Sequence record: MT446416.1
From: Escherichia virus TH47
Reading direction: 5' to 3' (one strand)
DNA: 64,000 nucleotides
Below are positions 1,055-59,805 of this stretch, piece by piece. The notes below the pieces were generated by a model. That model saw only the letters and a list, made by a program, of their open reading frames with translations, made no database searches and was not told where the DNA came from. The position numbers were made by a program, and so were the translations under genes. Within the stretch, counting starts at the first letter, position 1. The number at the start of each line of letters is the position of its first letter.

Positions 1055-1086
1055 AAAGGAGAGCAAATGCTCTCCTTTTCTTTTTT
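1055..1086. terminator. bidirectional rho-independent terminator
   Basis: Perfect 10-bp stem aaaggagagc/gctctccttt with 4-nt loop, A-run upstream and T-run downstream; sits between convergent genes. Confidence 0.7.
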
Positions 1087-3373
1087 ACGCAATAACTTTT
1101 TCTACTGCTTTAGTTCGTTTAGGTTTGATTGCCAATTTACCATCAATCACATCAAACGTTACGTTACCACCATTAACCAGAGAACCACACAACATCTCTT
1201 TAGCTAGTGGGACACGGATGTTTTGCTCAATAGTGCGTTTCATTGGACGTGCACCCATTCCAACTTTAACACCATTTGTTGCCAACCACTCACGAGCCGC
1301 TTTGGTCAGTGAAACTTTAACTTTGCGGTCTTTGATTTGTTCATTCAAACTTCCCATGAACTTATCAATGATGCTGTCAATCGCTTCGCTGCTTAGGTCT
1401 TTGAATGTCACAATACTATCGATACGGTTGATGAATTCAGGTGGCAAGAATGCTTTAATCGCTTTATCTTGTGCTGTATCACTACCGCTCATCCCAATAC
1501 TACGCTTGGTTGAATCTGCTGCACCAAGGTTAGTCGTCATAATAACAGTTACGTTATTGAAGTAAACAGTTTTACCTTGTGAACCAGTCAAACGTCCTTC
1601 GTCCAGAACCTGTAGGAAGGTTAGTAGTACTTTACGATCAGCTTTTTCGATTTCATCGAGCAACAGTACTGCATTCGGGAACTGCTCAATCTTGTCGAGT
1701 AGCAGACCGTTACCAGAATCGTGACCAACATAGCCTGGAGGTGAACCAATCAGTTTAGCAACAGTATGTTCCTGTGAAAACTCGGACATATCGAAACGAA
1801 TCAGTTCAGAACCAGTTGCATCAGCCAGTGCTTTGGTAATTTCAGTTTTACCAGTACCAGATGGCCCAACAAACATGAATGCACCTTGAACACTTGATTT
1901 ATCACGCAGACCAGCACGAGCTACCATCACGTTATCAACCAGTTTCTGTACTGCTTCTTCTTGACCGTATACACGAGAACGGAGTGCATCTGGTAGATTA
2001 CGCATACGTTCACTTTCAGTGCAAGCAACCACGTTAATATCTAGGTTTGCGATACCTGCAACAACTTCTTGAATCAGTGCAACAGTGATGATGTTATCAT
2101 CAGTTTCACGAGAACGTACTTTCGCTGCCGCCGCATCCATTAGGTCGATTGCTTTGTCAGGGAAGTGTTTGTTCTTCAGGAACTTATCACTTAGTGTAAT
2201 AACTGCATCCATTGCTTCAGTACTGAACTCTACGTTATGGAAAGTTTCATAAGTAGATTTCAAACCATTCACAATCGCACGGGTTTCATCAATTGATGGC
2301 TCAACTACATCAATTTTCATGAAACGACGAGTTAGTGCACTATCTTTTTCGATGTTTTTACGATATTCATCGTAAGTTGTTGCACCGATTACACGAATCT
2401 CACCACGAGATAGTGCAGGTTTGAGCATGTTGCTCATATCCATAGAACCGTTGCTTGCTGAACCAGCACCAACCATAATATGGATTTCATCGATGAACAC
2501 AATAGTGTTTTCACGTTTCTTCAGTTCTTTTAGTAGGTTATCGATACGTTCTTCGAACTCACCACGGTACTTAGTACCAGCAGTCAGTGCACCTACGTTC
2601 AGAGACAGAATTTCAACATCTTTAAGATGCTCTGGTACTTCACCATCAGCGATTGCCTGTGCTAGACCATCAATGATTTGAGTTTTACCAACACCAGCTT
2701 CACCAGTCAGGATGGCATTCTTCTTAGTCTTACGGGCCAGAGTTTCAATCAGTGCAGAAAGCTCTTTCTGGCGACCAATCATTGGGTCAAGTTTACCTTC
2801 TTTTGCAAGTGCTGTTAGGTTAGTGGTGTAATCTTCTAAACCTTTTTGTTTGGACGATGGTTGCTGTTGTGCCACTTTTTTCTCCCCAGTTGGCTCATCA
2901 CTAATGCTTTGAAGGTTGATTCCGTTGTCGATTGCTTCTACGTGCTTCTGTAGAGTTCGTGCTGCTTCAGTACAAGTGATACCCTCTTCACGCAATGCTG
3001 CTTCTAGTGCAGTATTTGGGAAGGACAAACACTCAAACAGTACAAAATAAGCATCAATTGAGAAATCATCACGTTTAAGTTGCTCAATTACTGATTTCTT
3101 AGAAAGTTCCTGAACTACACGGTTCACGAGAAGTGATGTGCGGTTCGCTTCATCACCATCAGCACTTTTAGGTGCATGTGGGAATGTTGTATTCTTCAGA
3201 TATGCAATCAAACGACCGTGTAGGTTGTCTGCATCGATGTTCATATCTTCAAATACTGCTTTGATGCTATCGATTGTCAGTACTGTAGCACTTAGATGGT
3301 CAATAGTCAAGAAGGTATGACCCAGAGAAGTTGCCAGTTCGTCGCTTTTTTTGAATAATTGGGTAAGATTCAT
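1085..3373 (-). CDS. clpA: ClpA-like AAA+ unfoldase (Clp_N domain plus two AAA modules)
   Basis: N-terminal Clp_N-like repeats; D1 Walker A GEAGVGKT and Walker B FIDEIH; D2 Walker A GPSGTGKT and LLLDEIEKA; IGM tripeptide in D2 (ClpP-docking IGF/IGL-like loop); no ClpB middle domain. Start placed at ATG 3373 (GGAGAA SD 6 nt upstream) rather than GTG 3397. Confidence 0.85.
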   Translation of the reverse strand: MNLTQLFKKSDELATSLGHTFLTIDHLSATVLTIDSIKAVFEDMNIDADNLHGRLIAYLKNTTFPHAPKSADGDEANRTSLLVNRVVQELSKKSVIEQLKRDDFSIDAYFVLFECLSFPNTALEAALREEGITCTEAARTLQKHVEAIDNGINLQSISDEPTGEKKVAQQQPSSKQKGLEDYTTNLTALAKEGKLDPMIGRQKELSALIETLARKTKKNAILTGEAGVGKTQIIDGLAQAIADGEVPEHLKDVEILSLNVGALTAGTKYRGEFEERIDNLLKELKKRENTIVFIDEIHIMVGAGSASNGSMDMSNMLKPALSRGEIRVIGATTYDEYRKNIEKDSALTRRFMKIDVVEPSIDETRAIVNGLKSTYETFHNVEFSTEAMDAVITLSDKFLKNKHFPDKAIDLMDAAAAKVRSRETDDNIITVALIQEVVAGIANLDINVVACTESERMRNLPDALRSRVYGQEEAVQKLVDNVMVARAGLRDKSSVQGAFMFVGPSGTGKTEITKALADATGSELIRFDMSEFSQEHTVAKLIGSPPGYVGHDSGNGLLLDKIEQFPNAVLLLDEIEKADRKVLLTFLQVLDEGRLTGSQGKTVYFNNVTVIMTTNLGAADSTKRSIGMSGSDTAQDKAIKAFLPPEFINRIDSIVTFKDLSSEAIDSIIDKFMGSLNEQIKDRKVKVSLTKAAREWLATNGVKVGMGARPMKRTIEQNIRVPLAKEMLCGSLVNGGNVTFDVIDGKLAIKPKRTKAVEKVIA

Positions 3374-3411
3374 GTATTCTCCTAAATGAGTAGTCACTCT
3401 AATTAATAAAC

Positions 3412-3439
3412 ATTATATCACATTCTTTGCGTTTGTCAA
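3412..3439 (-). promoter_or_regulatory. sigma70-type promoter TTGACA-N16-TGaTATAAT driving the ClpA-like gene
   Basis: Minus-strand reading TTGACAaacgcaaagaatgtgaTATAAT; consensus -35 and extended -10, about 32-nt leader to the ATG. Confidence 0.6.
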
Positions 3440-3444
3440 CAAGG

Positions 3445-3450
3445 TAAATA
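3445..3450 (+). promoter_or_regulatory. T4-late-like TAAATA motif 31 nt upstream of ATG 3482
   Basis: One of eight TAAATA sites found 31-36 nt upstream of gene starts in this window. Confidence 0.3.
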
Positions 3451-3481
3451 AAGATATACCCGATTTATTTTGGAGACAAAC

Positions 3482-4978
3482 ATGACATACAGAATGTGGA
3501 AAAAAGGTAGAACCAATGATTACAAGTTCATTGACTCTGCCATAGCAGAACAATACAACATCGGTGGTGTTGACATGTGGCTTTATGCCTATGTCGGACC
3601 AAAACAAGTCGCTGATAACACTGATTTATCATATGGCGGTGATTATTATGGTTCAGATAGTACCGTTGTGTCAAGCATTGGTGATTTAATTTTTGGTGAC
3701 ACTCCAAGTCGTAACTATAATCTCGAAGCTATCACCTTAAGTTGCGTCTACCAAGTCCAAGAAGCAACTCCTGACTTGAAAATCCCAGGATTGTTCTTCA
3801 ACTTTAACACTATGGACATCACAATTCATTATAACACAATGATTCAGCGTTTGGGAAGAAAAATTATGCCAGGTGACGTAATCGAACTCCCTAACTTACG
3901 TGATTTTGATGTACTTGGTAAAGATTCTGGTTTAAATCGCTTCTATGTAGTACAAGATGGGTTTAGAACATCAGAAGGTTACTCAGTTACATGGCAACAT
4001 CACATTTACAAACTCCGTGTTAAACCTCTTACTGATTCACCAGAGTATTCAGACCTTCTAGGTAACAATAACTACCCTGATGACCCAGATGAACCAAACA
4101 ACGGCAATGGTAATACTGATGATGGCTCTTCAGAGAACAGCAGCTATGGTAATGAAATGGACATTATGAACCGTATCATTATGCAAGCTGATGATGAAGT
4201 ACCATACATTCATTTTACTAACGAACACTTGTTCGATGACAGACCAGATACCGTTGATTTGTCTAAGTATATGCTAAATGGATACGAATTACCAGAGGAA
4301 CCAGCAAATAAAATGTATTTCCTCAAGAAAACTTACCCAGTACTGAAAGAACTATCTAATGATACATGGATTTCTGTAGAAGTCAAGCGTGGAACAATCT
4401 TTCCTCGCAAACCGATGGATGGTGACTTCTTCTTTAAAGAAAACGAGGCTGATGTCACTGGCTTCTCATTGTATCAATACGATAAATCTGCCAAAAAGTG
4501 GCTAAATTGTGATGTTGAGTATACTACAGAAAGCACACCACCACAAGGGGTTGATGATTTTTATATTGAATACAAAGAACCACACATTTATCAGTACTTA
4601 AATGGTAAATGGGGAGAACCAGAAGTAACTTACGTTAATGACCCATTCACTTCTAATAGTGTTTATGGAAATATCGATTCACAACAAGATTATCGTCCTA
4701 AGATTCCTCCAGCACGAGGTACAGTTCCTGAAGGTAATATGTTCCCAAGTGATGCAGTTGATGGTGATTACTACTATCGTACCGATTATACACCAGTAAC
4801 CCTATGGGAATACAGTGCATCCAAGAATTCTTGGGTGATTTTCGATTACGGTGGTAGAAAACCGTGGGAAGGTGCAGATCTTGCTCTAACAGAATTTGTT
4901 AATAGCCCGAACCGTGTACCATTACATGATGCAGTTAAACCTAATACAGCGTATCGTATACATAAGGATTCAGAATGA
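3482..4978 (+). CDS. hypothetical protein (possible virion structural)
   Basis: 498-aa ORF; ATG 3482 with GGAG SD; ORF-track start 3470 is TTG; stop overlaps next ATG (ATGA). Confidence 0.5.
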   Translation: MTYRMWKKGRTNDYKFIDSAIAEQYNIGGVDMWLYAYVGPKQVADNTDLSYGGDYYGSDSTVVSSIGDLIFGDTPSRNYNLEAITLSCVYQVQEATPDLKIPGLFFNFNTMDITIHYNTMIQRLGRKIMPGDVIELPNLRDFDVLGKDSGLNRFYVVQDGFRTSEGYSVTWQHHIYKLRVKPLTDSPEYSDLLGNNNYPDDPDEPNNGNGNTDDGSSENSSYGNEMDIMNRIIMQADDEVPYIHFTNEHLFDDRPDTVDLSKYMLNGYELPEEPANKMYFLKKTYPVLKELSNDTWISVEVKRGTIFPRKPMDGDFFFKENEADVTGFSLYQYDKSAKKWLNCDVEYTTESTPPQGVDDFYIEYKEPHIYQYLNGKWGEPEVTYVNDPFTSNSVYGNIDSQQDYRPKIPPARGTVPEGNMFPSDAVDGDYYYRTDYTPVTLWEYSASKNSWVIFDYGGRKPWEGADLALTEFVNSPNRVPLHDAVKPNTAYRIHKDSE

Positions 4979-39256: not shown

Positions 39257-41251
39257 TTAATATTTTTTTGTGTATTTTATATTACCAGAGTTGTAAATCT
39301 TATAATATCCCAATACATCACAGCAAATTTGTCTCTCAGTTAAGTTAATATCATGACCTTTCTTGACCAATTTATGTTTTTGACATTTCTGACGTGAAAT
39401 CCTCTCATGTGTTTGTGGGTCATAATAAAAATATCCGGGTTCTGTATAGCTATCAAACTCAAAGCCAAGAACTGTATAAAGATCACCACTACTCCAATCC
39501 ATATCCGCATATGTCAATAATGATTGTGGATTATATACTGTTTCAAAATATTTTAGTAATTTTGATGCACCACCAACAACTGTACCGGATGAACAGTATC
39601 TGATTAATTCATATTCATAGTTTTTATCAAACCTTGATTTACCAAAGGTCATAACTGCAACTAAATCACTTCCATAGTAAAGTCCAATGTGAATACTTGC
39701 TTGTGCAACACCTTGAATATGGTGTGATTTAGTAAACATATTACTTACTTGTTTGTCTATATTTCTAACAGTACATTTTCTAGCATAAATTCTATTTGAC
39801 ACTAGAAGTTTATTCTTTAAACGTTCCTTGATAATTTTATTTGTTAATGGGTTATCCCATTCATCTTCATAAATGTGAATAAGATTCACCCCATGTTTTA
39901 AACAATCCAATACCTTATCTTGATGTTTAGTGGAATTTACATTTTCATCATTATGCCAATACACACCATTAAATTCAATAGCTAGATTACGGTCTGGGAT
40001 ATACACATCCAACTCTTTAGGTTTCAGCACTGAACGGTCGTTTTCTATAATTTGCATATTTTGTATTAATGATTTTATATAATCAACTAAATCTTTCTCT
40101 TTCAATGAATGACCATTATTTTTCTGACACTTACATTTCACTTTATGATTTTTATACTTACTATAAAACAATTCATCACAATACTCACACCAAAATGGGT
40201 ATTCGTCTGTATTAACTTTCATCATTAGGTCGGTGTTTTCAAATAATGGAATATAGTTTTTATCAATATTTGCAACAATGATATTATATCTTTCGTCTAG
40301 ACGAGCAAGTGACATTTTCTCTTTATACTCATCAGTCTGTGAGTAGTGTTCTGAACCATATCTATTTTTTGTGGTTTCTTTCATTTTTTCAATGATAGAA
40401 TTATTTTGGGCTGGGTGTTTTACACCATATCGCTCCACATTGGTATTATGAACTTTTTCCTGAACACTCATATTGCTCATTGGGTAAAATGAATTATACT
40501 TCAACGTGTTGGTGTTTTTTATTTTATCTTGGACAATTTTATTTGATAGTGGATTGCCACCATATCGTTCAAGATTTGTTTTATTGATTTTTTCACGAAT
40601 CGTCGGTGATGATAAAGAATACTCAGCACCGTATCTTAATATATTTGTGTTTTTGGCTTTCTCTTTTACTTCATTTCTTTTGCTTTGGAATTCAACACCA
40701 TACTTTTTTAAATTTGTTGCTTTTACTTTATTGAATATTTCAGAGTTTTGGTTTGGATATTCACAACCATATCGCTCTATATTAGTTTGTTTGATTTTAT
40801 CTTTAGTTTCTGATGTTTGTAAATTAGATGAGACACCATAACGCTCAATGTTAGTTTTTTCTTTCTTTTGTTTTACTTCTTGTATTTGGGACACATTAGA
40901 TACACCATACATATCCATTAATGTTGATTTTGTTTTATTAGTTCGATTTTTATAATACATTTCATGGCATACATTACATGTATTTTTCTTATTAATCACA
41001 TAGTCATCACAAAATTTATAAAATCCTTTTTGGAAATTTTTGTATCTTGCTTTTTTTCCGCAATATGCAGTTGGAACGGTTGTTATATCATTCATGAACA
41101 TATATAGAATTTTATATATTTCGAAATCAGTTTTTGGTTCTATTCCAAAAGTAGAAAGGAGAACCCTCACACGAGAGTCCCCTTTGTATAAATGTACCCA
41201 TGAATTAATATGTTTTGACAACAAAAGTTTTTTTAATTCTTCATTGTTCAT
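39257..41251 (-). CDS. homing-endonuclease-like protein with ten ~23-aa RYG repeats and a Vsr-like nuclease domain
   Basis: Cys-rich N-terminus; ten ~23-aa R/K-Y-G/N repeats; C-terminal LAIEFNGVYWH motif typical of PD-(D/E)xK homing-endonuclease-like domains. Confidence 0.6.
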   Translation of the reverse strand: MNNEELKKLLLSKHINSWVHLYKGDSRVRVLLSTFGIEPKTDFEIYKILYMFMNDITTVPTAYCGKKARYKNFQKGFYKFCDDYVINKKNTCNVCHEMYYKNRTNKTKSTLMDMYGVSNVSQIQEVKQKKEKTNIERYGVSSNLQTSETKDKIKQTNIERYGCEYPNQNSEIFNKVKATNLKKYGVEFQSKRNEVKEKAKNTNILRYGAEYSLSSPTIREKINKTNLERYGGNPLSNKIVQDKIKNTNTLKYNSFYPMSNMSVQEKVHNTNVERYGVKHPAQNNSIIEKMKETTKNRYGSEHYSQTDEYKEKMSLARLDERYNIIVANIDKNYIPLFENTDLMMKVNTDEYPFWCEYCDELFYSKYKNHKVKCKCQKNNGHSLKEKDLVDYIKSLIQNMQIIENDRSVLKPKELDVYIPDRNLAIEFNGVYWHNDENVNSTKHQDKVLDCLKHGVNLIHIYEDEWDNPLTNKIIKERLKNKLLVSNRIYARKCTVRNIDKQVSNMFTKSHHIQGVAQASIHIGLYYGSDLVAVMTFGKSRFDKNYEYELIRYCSSGTVVGGASKLLKYFETVYNPQSLLTYADMDWSSGDLYTVLGFEFDSYTEPGYFYYDPQTHERISRQKCQKHKLVKKGHDINLTERQICCDVLGYYKIYNSGNIKYTKKY
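40277..40939 (-). repeat. in-frame ~69-bp tandem repeats encoding the RYG modules
   Basis: RYG/KYG/RYN recur every 22-24 residues (protein positions ~115-323). Confidence 0.6.
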
Positions 41252-41277: not shown

Positions 41278-42069
41278 TTATCCGATAATCATTCCAAGTG
41301 GTTCCCCACCATCTTTATATCGCTTCAACTGTTCTTTTAGTTGTTCTTGTAATTGGATACCTTCATTTCTTAATGTATCACCATCCATTGAAAATGTCCC
41401 TTGCGGTCCAGGCAATGAAGCAAACTTAGCACGGTTACGACCAAGCATAATCATTGCTTCAGACAATGCCCAATCACGAAGCCACGGGTAACTTTGCTGA
41501 CGTTGGAATAACAATGGTTCTGGGATGTTATGATATACATGTAATAATACTTCTTCTGTACCACGAATATCACGATCAATAATAAGTTTCTTAGTCATTT
41601 GGTTGAATTGGAATATAATTTCACGTCCAAACATACGACCAACCAATTCTTGAAATTGAAAGCTGAAATCATATGTTGTTAGGTCATATCCACCTGCATT
41701 CCTAGCAGACGTCAATAGATATGTATTTGTGAATGCCAATGAGAATGGGTCTACGCTGTTACCTGACCCAGAACTTAAATAACCATTACCATAACGATAA
41801 ATCTTTTTAACAATTTCTACTTCTGTTGGTAGCATATATACCGATTGTGAATCATAAAATTTCATATTTAAAAATGCTTCTTCTTTAGAAGCAGAACTCC
41901 ACGCTCTGTAATTTGATACAGCATTATCAATTGCAATTTCTAATTGACCATCAGTAATTTCTACCTCAACTGCACCTGCTCCCAACATTTGAGTGATAAC
42001 ATCTTTCAGTTTTTCACGATGATCAAAATTAGGAGCATCTGGGTTTCCACCCATATAATTGTAAGACAT
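41278..42069 (-). CDS. hypothetical protein
   Basis: 263-aa ORF; its GAGGTG SD lies in the 3' arm of the upstream hairpin. Confidence 0.5.
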   Translation of the reverse strand: MSYNYMGGNPDAPNFDHREKLKDVITQMLGAGAVEVEITDGQLEIAIDNAVSNYRAWSSASKEEAFLNMKFYDSQSVYMLPTEVEIVKKIYRYGNGYLSSGSGNSVDPFSLAFTNTYLLTSARNAGGYDLTTYDFSFQFQELVGRMFGREIIFQFNQMTKKLIIDRDIRGTEEVLLHVYHNIPEPLLFQRQQSYPWLRDWALSEAMIMLGRNRAKFASLPGPQGTFSMDGDTLRNEGIQLQEQLKEQLKRYKDGGEPLGMIIG

Positions 42070-42075
42070 AAAAAA

Positions 42076-42117
42076 AGCACCTCATTAATGTTTATATATA
42101 CATTATTTAGAGGTGCT
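42076..42117 (-). promoter_or_regulatory. SD-sequestering hairpin with TAAATA late-like motif in its loop
   Basis: Stem agcacctc/gaggtgct; 3' arm contains the SD; loop carries TAAATA 34 nt upstream of ATG 42069. Confidence 0.45.
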
Positions 42118-42122
42118 AATAC

Positions 42123-42350
42123 TTATTTTGAATTATACAAGCAGTACAGGTATACCAACGGAGTAAAATGTTCTGAATCTATAGCATATATTAACTGTGT
42201 AACATATATTCCGTATAAATCTCGACTTTTATCTCGGTACATTAACAATGAATTATTAAAGTATGGGTCAACCCAGTACTTTATATTATTTAACATCAAT
42301 GTATTGTTTCTGTATCCTGATAATTTTAAGCATTTAGCCAACTTTTTCAC
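42123..42350 (-). CDS. possible small ORF (75 aa), uncertain
   Basis: GTG start, overlaps upstream gene by 17 nt, no clear SD. Confidence 0.25.
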   Translation of the reverse strand: MKKLAKCLKLSGYRNNTLMLNNIKYWVDPYFNNSLLMYRDKSRDLYGIYVTQLIYAIDSEHFTPLVYLYCLYNSK

Positions 42351-42711
42351 AATTACTTAGTAAGTGTGTGATTACATCGGCAGTGAATGGTCCTAGAACT
42401 AAAACTTCTTCTCCATTACCGAAGATACTCAATGGTACAGATTGTTGTCCTGCTAGATATTCGATTTGTTCTAATTCGAAAATGTCATCAGCAGCATAAA
42501 CAACCTGTTCCATTTCATTATCTTTAATCCATGACTGCCAATGTTCTTTAAACTGCTTCGCTTCGTATTCCAGCACATAGTTAGGTGATTCTGGATTGTA
42601 CTGATGTAGCATTGTCATACCAGCCATGACCAGTTCTTTTGGTGATGGAGTAGAATCTTTCAGTACTACGATAGCTTGGATAGTTTTAACTTTAACGTTT
42701 TGAGCAGCCAT
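42334..42711 (-). CDS. hypothetical protein
   Basis: 125-aa ORF with AGAGGT SD. Confidence 0.5.
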   Translation of the reverse strand: MAAQNVKVKTIQAIVVLKDSTPSPKELVMAGMTMLHQYNPESPNYVLEYEAKQFKEHWQSWIKDNEMEQVVYAADDIFELEQIEYLAGQQSVPLSIFGNGEEVLVLGPFTADVITHLLSNCEKVG

Positions 42712-42723
42712 TAGATACCTCTA

Positions 42724-43032
42724 TTATAGAATGATTTTGTTATCAGGAACAATCAGTGCTGGTTTTTCTTCGATAGCCTTGATTGCTTCAACATAAGCTT
42801 CAACTAGTGCAGGGTTTGCATCACTGATGCTGATGATGTTGGATTTATAAAAAATAACGCCTTTTTCAGAACTAATGAATTCTAGGTAATCACGTAGAAT
42901 GATTTCACCTTGTTCGTCAGTACCTAGCTGTGCTGGGTAGTTAACTACTACTGCTTCAGGTGCATCATTTTGTAGAATTGCTAGTACTGGGCCAACGCTG
43001 TTGATGTTTAGTAGTTTAACGGTCATAGTCAT
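42724..43032 (-). CDS. hypothetical protein
   Basis: Start placed at ATG 43032 rather than TTG 43041. Confidence 0.45.
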   Translation of the reverse strand: MTMTVKLLNINSVGPVLAILQNDAPEAVVVNYPAQLGTDEQGEIILRDYLEFISSEKGVIFYKSNIISISDANPALVEAYVEAIKAIEEKPALIVPDNKIIL

Positions 43033-43051
43033 TTTTGTCAAGTCCTTTTGT

Positions 43052-43528
43052 TTATTTTATAATGTATAAGTGTTTTTCTGCATTAACCAGTCTGTGGTCA
43101 ATGATTTCTTTGATAACGTTCCAGTTACCACCGCCTAAATCGGCTCCAATTTTCGGGAAGTGTACATGAACAGTGCGTTCAACGTTACATAAGTAATTGA
43201 GTTGTTTGAAAACATCATCGATTGCATCATAACTCACATACTTAGAACCGTCATTACCATAGTACTTTTGGGTAATGCAGTTTGCGATAAGCAAATCATC
43301 ACTTATAGAAGAATATGAAATTTGTCCTGTTCTTAGAAATCCCATTTCCTTTTCATATGCTTTATAATCATCATATGCCATCGGGTAACGATTTCTTAGT
43401 TCTTTTGCAAAACCCGAACCCATCTTACCCTGTGCATTACAACCATGAGCGATTATATGCAACGCGGTTTGATCATCAGTAACAGTGTTGAACAATTCAA
43501 ACAAATTACCTAGGTGTTCATGTATCAT
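43052..43528 (-). CDS. macro-domain-like protein (ADP-ribose binding/processing fold)
   Basis: HGCNAQGKMGSGFA and FPKIGADLGGGNW resemble the two glycine-rich macro-domain motifs; GGAGAA SD. Confidence 0.55.
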   Translation of the reverse strand: MIHEHLGNLFELFNTVTDDQTALHIIAHGCNAQGKMGSGFAKELRNRYPMAYDDYKAYEKEMGFLRTGQISYSSISDDLLIANCITQKYYGNDGSKYVSYDAIDDVFKQLNYLCNVERTVHVHFPKIGADLGGGNWNVIKEIIDHRLVNAEKHLYIIK

Positions 43529-44834: not shown

Positions 44835-44862
44835 ATTATATCAGAAGATGTTAACTTGTCCC
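44835..44862 (-). promoter_or_regulatory. promoter GGGACA-N16-TGaTATAAT
   Basis: Minus-strand GGGACAagttaacatcttctgaTATAAT just after the CCA-enzyme stop; a second TGgTATAAT lies at 44770-44778. Confidence 0.55.
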
Positions 44863-59381: not shown

Positions 59382-59752
59382 TTGAATTTATTCCTCGCTG
59401 CAAGGGAATTCTGTTTAAGTTCATTCAGAAGTTTAACGCCATCTTCATCTAGACATACGTTTTTGTAAACTTCTCTTTCTACTATAATAGGCACTTGTGT
59501 CTCGATAACTTTAGCATTATCTTGCATTATCTTTTTGGTTTCGATATAGTTTTTTGCATTTTCTTGCTGCATCTTAGCGAGTGCAGAATCAACTTTCTTT
59601 TCTATTTTTTGGTCAATACTTTCTTTATAACCAGTATAATAAGTATTTGCTGACCATCCACCATAAACACAACCTGCCATTACTCCTACTACCAAAATTG
59701 GTTTCCAATATGGTATTAAAACTTTTGAAACAATAATTTCTAGTACACTCAT
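59378..59752 (-). CDS. i-spanin candidate (N-terminal TM plus periplasmic coiled coil)
   Basis: TM ILVVGVMAGCVYGGW followed by charged helical region. Confidence 0.5.
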   Translation of the reverse strand: MSVLEIIVSKVLIPYWKPILVVGVMAGCVYGGWSANTYYTGYKESIDQKIEKKVDSALAKMQQENAKNYIETKKIMQDNAKVIETQVPIIVEREVYKNVCLDEDGVKLLNELKQNSLAARNKFK

Positions 59753-59805
59753 AATAACATCTCCTATAGTTGGTAATATTATTTAGAGTGTACTATATTA
59801 TATGT

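Follow-up and report, generated by a model that had tools for sequence, protein, structure and literature searches.

A predicted T4-type translational lock with a late promoter between its arms at the neck gene of a RaK2-like jumbo coliphage

In bacteriophage T4, long early transcripts of the lysozyme gene e hold the Shine-Dalgarno (SD) sequence and the AUG in a helix (McPheeters et al. 1986, as reviewed in PMC3014915). The 5' strand or the loop of this helix is encoded by DNA that also holds a late promoter of the TATAAATA type, and the late transcripts lose the 5' arm and are translated (PMC3014915). Translation is 100-fold lower on the long transcripts (PMC3014915, PMC2988022), and the arrangement is conserved among related phages (PMC3014915). 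Late transcripts of I-TevI, I-TevII, I-TevIII, segB and Aeh1 mobE are likewise too short to form the hairpin that sequesters the ribosome binding site, and the T4 and Aeh1 homing-endonuclease genes with regulatory hairpins belong to early or middle polycistronic units (PMC2988022). Further late genes of T4 that are carried on long polycistronic RNAs, namely soc, 49, 39, 25 and 26, have initiation regions masked by structure (PMC3014915, PMC2988022); of these, soc and 49 follow the same scheme as gene e and I-TevI. For Aeromonas phage Aeh1 a late promoter, CTAAATA, has been predicted, beginning at -12 relative to the putative start (PMC1524935). In the literature that we searched we found no description of such a lock in RaK2-like phages.

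Here we analyse a 64-kb stretch of phage DNA (the window). Its identity is 92-93% with the Asteriusvirus coliphages UE-S1 and ph0011 and ~86% with 121Q and PBECO4, and we assign it by sequence to an Asteriusvirus-like, RaK2/121Q-like jumbo coliphage. RaK2-like phages are jumbo myoviruses with genomes of ~350 kb, and T4 is only distantly related to them. We consider it likely that the neck gene of this phage is under a transcript-dependent translational lock of the T4 type, in which the start site, the read-through and the effect on translation are inferred.

A two-tier hairpin ahead of the neck gene

The gene under study encodes a protein of 263 aa that matches the neck protein/head-tail adaptor Ad2 family (phrog_211, 3.6e-42). 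The same ORF is annotated as "neck protein" in the records of relatives, and the Muenster record notes homology to the T4 protein NP_049772 (e-value 7.6e-6). A Pfam search with the neck protein and with a 75-aa ORF upstream of it gave no match, and the neck identity came from PHROGs. The start codon differs between records (1486 in RaK2, L007; 1498 in Muenster, L006; 1516 in UE-S1, L002), the RaK2 start being an ATG that overlaps the SD and the UE-S1 start lying 15 nt downstream. We favour the ATG equivalent to window position 42069 because of the hairpin/SD geometry and the conservation of the N-terminus.

Three co-directional genes precede the neck gene, in an order (macro, hypothetical, Pth-like, neck) that is kept across the clade:

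43052-43528, minus strand: macro-domain phosphatase gene
42724-43041, minus strand: gene of no known function
42334-42711, minus strand: Pth-like gene
41278-42069, minus strand: neck protein gene, with its ATG at 42069-42067

Further upstream, also on the minus strand, lie genes for a NUDIX hydrolase and a thioredoxin-like protein and two small genes without assignment. From their contents the upstream co-directional genes (NUDIX, thioredoxin, macro/phosphatase, Pth-like) appear to be of early type, and transcripts of the macro and Pth-like genes would be expected to run into the neck hairpin. A strong, terminator-like hairpin stands directly before the SD of the macro-domain gene (43569-43546, minus strand), and a scan for terminators from 43546 to 42117 called none before the neck hairpin. 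A sigma70-like promoter with an extended -10 (GGGACA-16-TGATATAAT; 44835-44862, minus strand) is seen upstream of the NUDIX and thioredoxin genes. The -35 motif TGAAACG, proposed for middle promoters of CBB, is not enriched in the window (13 copies against 8.3 expected) and is absent near the neck locus, and no promoter could be assigned to the upstream operon in that way.

Two insertions vary between relatives. An extra segment of ~200 bp between the Pth-like gene and the hairpin (42123-42333, minus strand) is found in most Asteriusvirus genomes and is missing from Turkey5 and from other genera, in which the gap is ~50-60 nt. The segment holds a TATAAT hexamer (42137-42132) and the 75-aa ORF mentioned above (42123-42350), which has a GTG start and no Pfam or PHROG match and is unannotated in several records checked. 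Directly after the neck gene lies a homing/HNH endonuclease gene (664 aa; 39257-41251, minus strand; phrog_3339, DUF7487), present in this phage, UE-S1, ph0011, RaK2 and Muenster and absent from fEgEco12, Turkey5, 7t3, GAP32, CBB and others. No separate promoter or hairpin accompanies this gene, and it would share the neck late transcript.

On the minus strand the neck leader reads ...attAGCACCTCTAAATAatgtatatataaacattaatGAGGTGCTttttttATG, in the order attAGCACCTC-TAAATA-atgtatatataaacattaat-GAGGTGCT-tttttt-ATG, and its parts are as follows:

42117-42110, minus strand: 5' arm of the outer stem, AGCACCTC; anti-SD-like, and contained only in transcripts begun upstream
42109-42104, minus strand: TAAATA, the putative late-promoter core (CTAAATA at 42110-42104), adjoining the 5' arm directly and lying between the arms
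42105-42086, minus strand: inner stem-loop of 6 bp, UAAUGU (42105-42100) paired with ACAUUA (42091-42086)
42097-42100, minus strand: TATA element over the predicted +1, made up of the final base of the inner 5' arm and three bases at the start of the apical loop
42099-42092, minus strand: apical loop of 8 nt, AUAUAUAA, closed by the inner stem
42083-42076, minus strand: 3' arm of the outer stem, GAGGTGCT; a perfect 8-bp complement of AGCACCTC that contains the SD
42076-42070, minus strand: run of 7 T in the spacer between SD and ATG; a possible U-tract of an accessory terminator in this lineage

The 5' arm is intergenic, the upstream ORF ending at 42123, and the SD GAGGTG (42083-42078) stands 8 nt ahead of the ATG. 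The original prediction had placed this SD in the 3' arm of an 8-bp hairpin and TAAATA in the loop, exactly 34 nt before the ATG (42103-42070), and the coordinates of both bear this out. It had taken the structure for a simple hairpin: the outer stem is real, and the element is in fact two-tiered, with the inner 6-bp stem and its 8-nt loop. It had also passed over the T-run, which in this lineage could terminate transcription as well.

The 42-nt element folds at -16.4 kcal/mol, compared with -4.1 +/- 2.1 for dinucleotide shuffles (z = -6.0; as good in 0/200), and in two 91-nt contexts z is -3.8 and -3.2. The predicted energy needed to open positions -14 to +3 within an RNA spanning -100 to +40 is 14.6 kcal/mol, which makes the neck initiation region the second most occluded among 82 genes of the window (mean 5.3 +/- 3.1 kcal/mol). 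An Rfam search returned only two sub-threshold chance matches (E = 0.21 and 0.65), neither of which is the hairpin, one of them overlapping the 3' arm on the opposite strand. An RNase III site was considered and rejected, since stems of 8-12 bp are, as a matter of general knowledge, too short.

Neck upstream regions were collected from 20 genomes, for which we used GenBank phage records since a scan of IMG/VR gave only 121Q. All 19 RaK2-like genomes examined, from Asteriusvirus, Alcyoneusvirus, Mimasvirus, Eneladusvirus and unclassified phages, carry an SD-sequestering hairpin at the neck gene (-17 to -25 kcal/mol), and in all 19 leaders TAAATA either adjoins the 5' arm or overlaps with it; among the distinct aligned relatives the motif does not vary (13 of 13). 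The hairpin is kept across genera with ~67-80% protein identity, its arms showing compensatory changes between relatives (CCTC/GAGG versus CCCC/GGGG), and most of them are predicted to have an inner stem as well, its sequence varying. The outer arms (5'/3') are:

Asteriusvirus: AGCACCTC / GAGGTGCT
RaK2, Muenster: TAGCACCTC / GAGGTGCTA
7t3, Kae01: GCACCCCTA / TAGGGGTGC
Hallingskeid: AGCACCTCTAAA / TTTAGAGGTGCT
GAP32, CBB, BF, XbC2, Yen9-04: (TA)CCCCTAAATATG / CATGTTTAGGGG(TA), with one G-U pair
EJP2: AGCATCTCT / AGAGGTGCT, with one G-U pair

In a MAFFT alignment of the 13 distinct leaders, 86% of cells are paired as against 40-58% when the partners are slid, and double changes occur at three pairs. 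The covariation score of 0.168 was reached in 0/500 shuffles (0.107 +/- 0.018), the covariation amounting to few independent events and the split at column 11-51 (UA 6, CG 6, UG 1) largely tracking the split between clades. 7t3 stands one column out of register because of a TA insertion (TATAAATA), and the pairing reported from this alignment is therefore slightly understated. RNAalifold recovered the same helix independently. The neck leaders of the more distant relatives PA5oct and Atu_ph07 were examined and the hairpin is absent from both; in Atu_ph07 the gene upstream of neck is divergent. By these sequence measures the neck hairpin is a real, conserved regulatory element.

TAAATA as a late-promoter core and the recurrence of the design

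TAAATA is 2.6-fold depleted in the window (39 copies against 101 +/- 9 expected) despite a G+C content of 36%, and TATAAATA occurs once where 8.5 copies are expected, a scarcity that fits selection against stray copies. The same hexamer, in the orientation of the gene, precedes the start by 33-65 nt at 15 of 83 predicted genes, nearly all of them structural or lysis genes: neck, tail sheath, two tail-tube paralogues, fibre, a tail protein, several virion proteins and an Rz-like spanin (for example at 3445, 9125, 13418, 19340, 34387, 38230 and 42109). For structural genes of CBB and GAP32, the CBB paper reported an upstream motif with the MEME consensus ATAAATA. Its authors found a gp55-like sigma factor and no homologues of gp33 or gp45 in CBB, and late initiation may therefore differ in detail from that of T4. 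CBB gp244 matches the late sigma factor family phrog_234 (5e-19), matches occur in 32 Escherichia phage records, with homologues ~75% identical in the sampled E. coli relatives (e.g. WPEC5), and the gene is located outside the 64-kb window. Taken together, the sequence evidence indicates that TAAATA is the late-promoter core of the clade, of the gp55 type.

Under the T4 spacing rule, which places the motif at -13 to -6, the neck late +1 is predicted by extrapolation from T4 to lie near 42098, in the apical loop and ~6 nt past the motif; the late RNA would therefore be without the 5' arm. The same spacing would put late starts near 38219 at the sheath gene and near 59774 at the spanin gene. The combination TAAATA-N1-7-TATA (mostly N3-5) occurs at nine of the 15 late promoters, neck included, against a background of 5.3% (p = 1.3e-8). 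Late promoters of the window thus look bipartite, with TATA over the predicted +1; in the stretch of CBB examined the downstream TATA is rarer (about 3/12). Sequences 5' of TAAATA are not common to the 15 promoters, and an UP-like element was rejected. TAAATA-N3-5-TATA may serve as a definition of the late promoter in the RaK2-like group and should help annotation, several records having no neck annotation or other start codons. Our literature search found no 5'-end mapping, expression or translation data for RaK2-like phages, and only in silico predictions of late motifs, for CBB and GAP32. The promoters reported in the RNA-seq study of PA5oct are sigma70-like only (PMC7318152), and promoters are not mentioned in the paper on the RaK2 genome.

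The neck hairpin does not stand alone, and while the original prediction was right about it, the recurrence of the design, in about five instances within the window, was left out. We compared the 28 nt predicted to be absent from each late RNA (20 nt, the motif and 2 nt) with the initiation regions. Cognate pairing averaged -9.1 as against -6.5 +/- 2.6 for non-cognate combinations (permutation p = 1e-4), with the spanin (-17.6), the virion protein gene at 3482 (-17.1), neck (-16.3), sheath (-14.7) and gene 43822 (-11.8) as outliers. Late-promoter genes are also more occluded than the other genes of the window (p = 7e-4). Four of the five strong locks lie at same-strand junctions from non-structural to late genes, the exception being 3482 (plus strand). 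Besides neck, the following were delimited:

38178-38241, minus strand: tail-sheath lock; AAATCCTTCAA at 38241-38231, TAAATA at 38230-38225, TTGGAGGATTT at 38188-38178
59741-59795, minus strand: Rz-like spanin lock; TAGTACACTC at 59795-59786, TAAATA at 59785-59780, GAGTGTACTA at 59750-59741
3431-3437 and 3440-3448, plus strand: 5' parts of the lock of a virion structural protein, GTTTGTC and CAAGGTAAA
3464-3472 and 3475-3481, plus strand: 3' parts of the same lock, TTTATTTTG and GACAAAC, around the SD GGAG

In the sheath lock the 3' arm masks the SD GGAGG, and the arrangement (AATCCTCCAA / TAAATA...TTGGAGGATT) is kept in all RaK2-like relatives. In Pseudomonas phage PA5oct the sheath gene is preceded by a hairpin (L016, upstream of 2999) with this topology and an unrelated sequence, GTGTTATATCT...AGATTATAACAC, and TAAATA is in its loop. 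In the spanin lock (TAGTACACTC / TAAATA ... ATGAGTGTACTA) the 3' arm has the G of the ATG (59752-59750) as its first base and extends into the coding sequence. It is the strongest predicted switch in the window, with an opening energy that falls from 14.7 to 1.7 kcal/mol. In 121Q the spanin lock shows a compensatory change from C-G to U-A that also alters a codon from Val to Met, and in other genera it is rebuilt from other sequence, with the topology kept in Kae01. The virion gene (3482-4978, plus strand) has a divergent upstream neighbour, a ClpA-like gene at 1085-3397; in its CBB orthologue, gp234, the arms differ (TCCAAAAA / TAAATA...TTTTTGGA).

A probable T4-type lock and its alternatives

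According to the T4-type model, RNA begun upstream, in the early/middle-type genes, would carry both arms of the hairpin. The anti-SD-like arm AGCACCUC would pair with the SD arm GAGGUGCU, so that the 30S subunit would be excluded and no neck protein made, and in this lineage the U7 run may also end part of the read-through transcripts immediately ahead of the AUG. In the late phase of infection, host RNA polymerase with the gp55-like sigma factor of the phage would start at the CTAAATA between the arms, giving an mRNA with a leader of ~29 nt that holds the 3' arm only; its SD would be free and the mRNA translated. The predicted opening energy of the neck initiation region falls from 14.6 to 3.8 kcal/mol when the RNA begins at the predicted +1, and the short late leader has no significant structure (z = -0.1).

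Three features by which the T4 class is known are found here: the SD is predicted to lie in a stable helix, a gp55-type motif lies in the DNA of the hairpin, and the clade encodes a sigma factor of the gp55 family. The gene order agrees, the neck gene being downstream of and co-directional with presumed early/middle genes, whose transcripts may read through into it. The match to the T4 mechanism that had been proposed for this locus is thus supported in silico in its helix, promoter motif, gene order and sigma factor; every part of the model that can be tested on sequence holds, the support being computational throughout. The original prediction had also given the T4 precedent correctly. Several observations weigh against the model nonetheless. 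No strong lock is seen at ten of the 15 genes preceded by TAAATA, and one of the strong locks (3482, plus strand) has a divergent neighbour from which read-through is not expected. The macro-Pth operon upstream of neck is itself preceded by the terminator at 43569-43546. Moreover, T7 follows the stem in the window, and in this lineage the element could act chiefly by termination.

This last point leads to the alternative that survives best, which we nonetheless consider unlikely: that the element is mainly an intrinsic terminator ending the macro/Pth-like unit, in which the late promoter is embedded by happenstance and the pairing of the SD is incidental. A stem containing G+C followed directly by 7 T in the window is what such a terminator would look like, 6-7 T are also found in BF, fHe-Yen9-04, GAP32 and 121Q, and other late promoters of the window sit just past a terminator (e.g. 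34387, 13418). However, the T-run varies while the helix stays intact, being absent from RaK2 and Muenster (CTATATG) and reduced to 2 T in Hallingskeid, 3 in EJP2 and 4 in 7t3. With 26 nt enclosed by its outer stem, the element falls outside the usual geometry of terminators, and the terminator scan passes over the hairpin because its loop exceeds 8 nt. The sheath and spanin hairpins, moreover, have no U-tract and end at or past the AUG. As the T-run is not conserved, termination is at most accessory and not the conserved function; as an addition to the lock in this lineage it is plausible, given the U7.

A more improbable alternative still is that transcription starts upstream of the 5' arm, so that every neck mRNA contains the hairpin, which acts as a constitutive attenuator or as the site of a trans-acting activator or repressor. 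Neck proteins of T4 are needed in few copies per virion, and a low copy number of the neck protein would suit attenuation; with gp33 and gp45 not detected in CBB, the geometry of the promoter might also differ from that in T4. Against this, the tail-sheath gene, with a product that is needed in very high copy number, has the same architecture, and from the presence of a lock on so abundant a protein we infer that the 5' arm must be missing from the main late mRNA. Furthermore, the 5' arm always lies directly upstream of TAAATA or overlaps it, and never past the predicted +1. In leaders of the GAP32 type the 5' arm includes the motif, and an RNA that starts past this -10-type element therefore cannot contain that arm. 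That the hairpin is a functionless inverted repeat arisen by chance in AT-rich intergenic DNA, as its mere 8 bp and the simplicity of SD-like and anti-SD-like strings might suggest, is effectively refuted by the z of -6.0, the compensatory changes across genera and the p of 1e-4 for cognate pairing.

If the T4-type lock operates at neck, changing the 5' arm from AGCACCTC to AGCAGGAC is predicted to raise translation strongly. More tentatively, and with slightly less than even confidence, we suggest that the neck hairpin is one copy of a clade-wide cassette that marks early-to-late junctions in RaK2-like phages and PA5oct. The proposed order of the cassette is an arm against the initiation region, TAAATA, a TATA initiator and an arm with the SD or AUG. 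By blocking translation it would shield the neck, sheath and spanin genes, along with some of the virion genes, from transcription that comes from upstream; in some lineages it would terminate transcription as well, and it would at the same time be the late promoter. The promoter hexamer of Mimasvirus and Eneladusvirus would also serve as part of the RNA arm. Were this so, post-transcriptional timing of late genes in genomes of 350 kb would be far wider than in the handful of cases in T4. The element may also be of use as a compact natural part for expression restricted in time in engineered therapeutic coliphages.

Comparison with known systems

The neck element resembles an intrinsic terminator, in this lineage, in its stem and T-run, and differs from one in its 26-nt loop with an inner stem, in a U-tract that is not conserved in the clade and in a 3' arm that is the SD. 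The late-promoter heptamer predicted for Aeh1 is identical to the neck context CTAAATA, Aeh1 being a T4 relative of the Straboviridae type. Among the T4 genes soc, 49, 39, 25 and 26 there is no neck or sheath gene, and the likeness to them lies in initiation regions masked by structure. The genes of the I-TevI group encode homing endonucleases, whereas here a core structural gene would be locked and the endonuclease gene of the window (39257-41251) has no such hairpin.

The closest likeness is to gene e, in the placing of a late promoter within the DNA of an SD-masking hairpin, known here from sequence. In contrast to gene e, the gene concerned encodes a neck protein and not a lysis enzyme, the spanin of the window being the closer functional parallel, and the promoter has a shorter core, (C/A)TAAATA, followed by a TATA element. 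The neck element is thus a well-supported further example, on sequence grounds, of a device known from T4, and the mechanism itself is not new. Previously known carriers of this scheme were lysozyme, soc and homing endonucleases; with the locks described here it would reach a distant lineage of jumbo phages and, besides a spanin, the core structural genes for neck and sheath.
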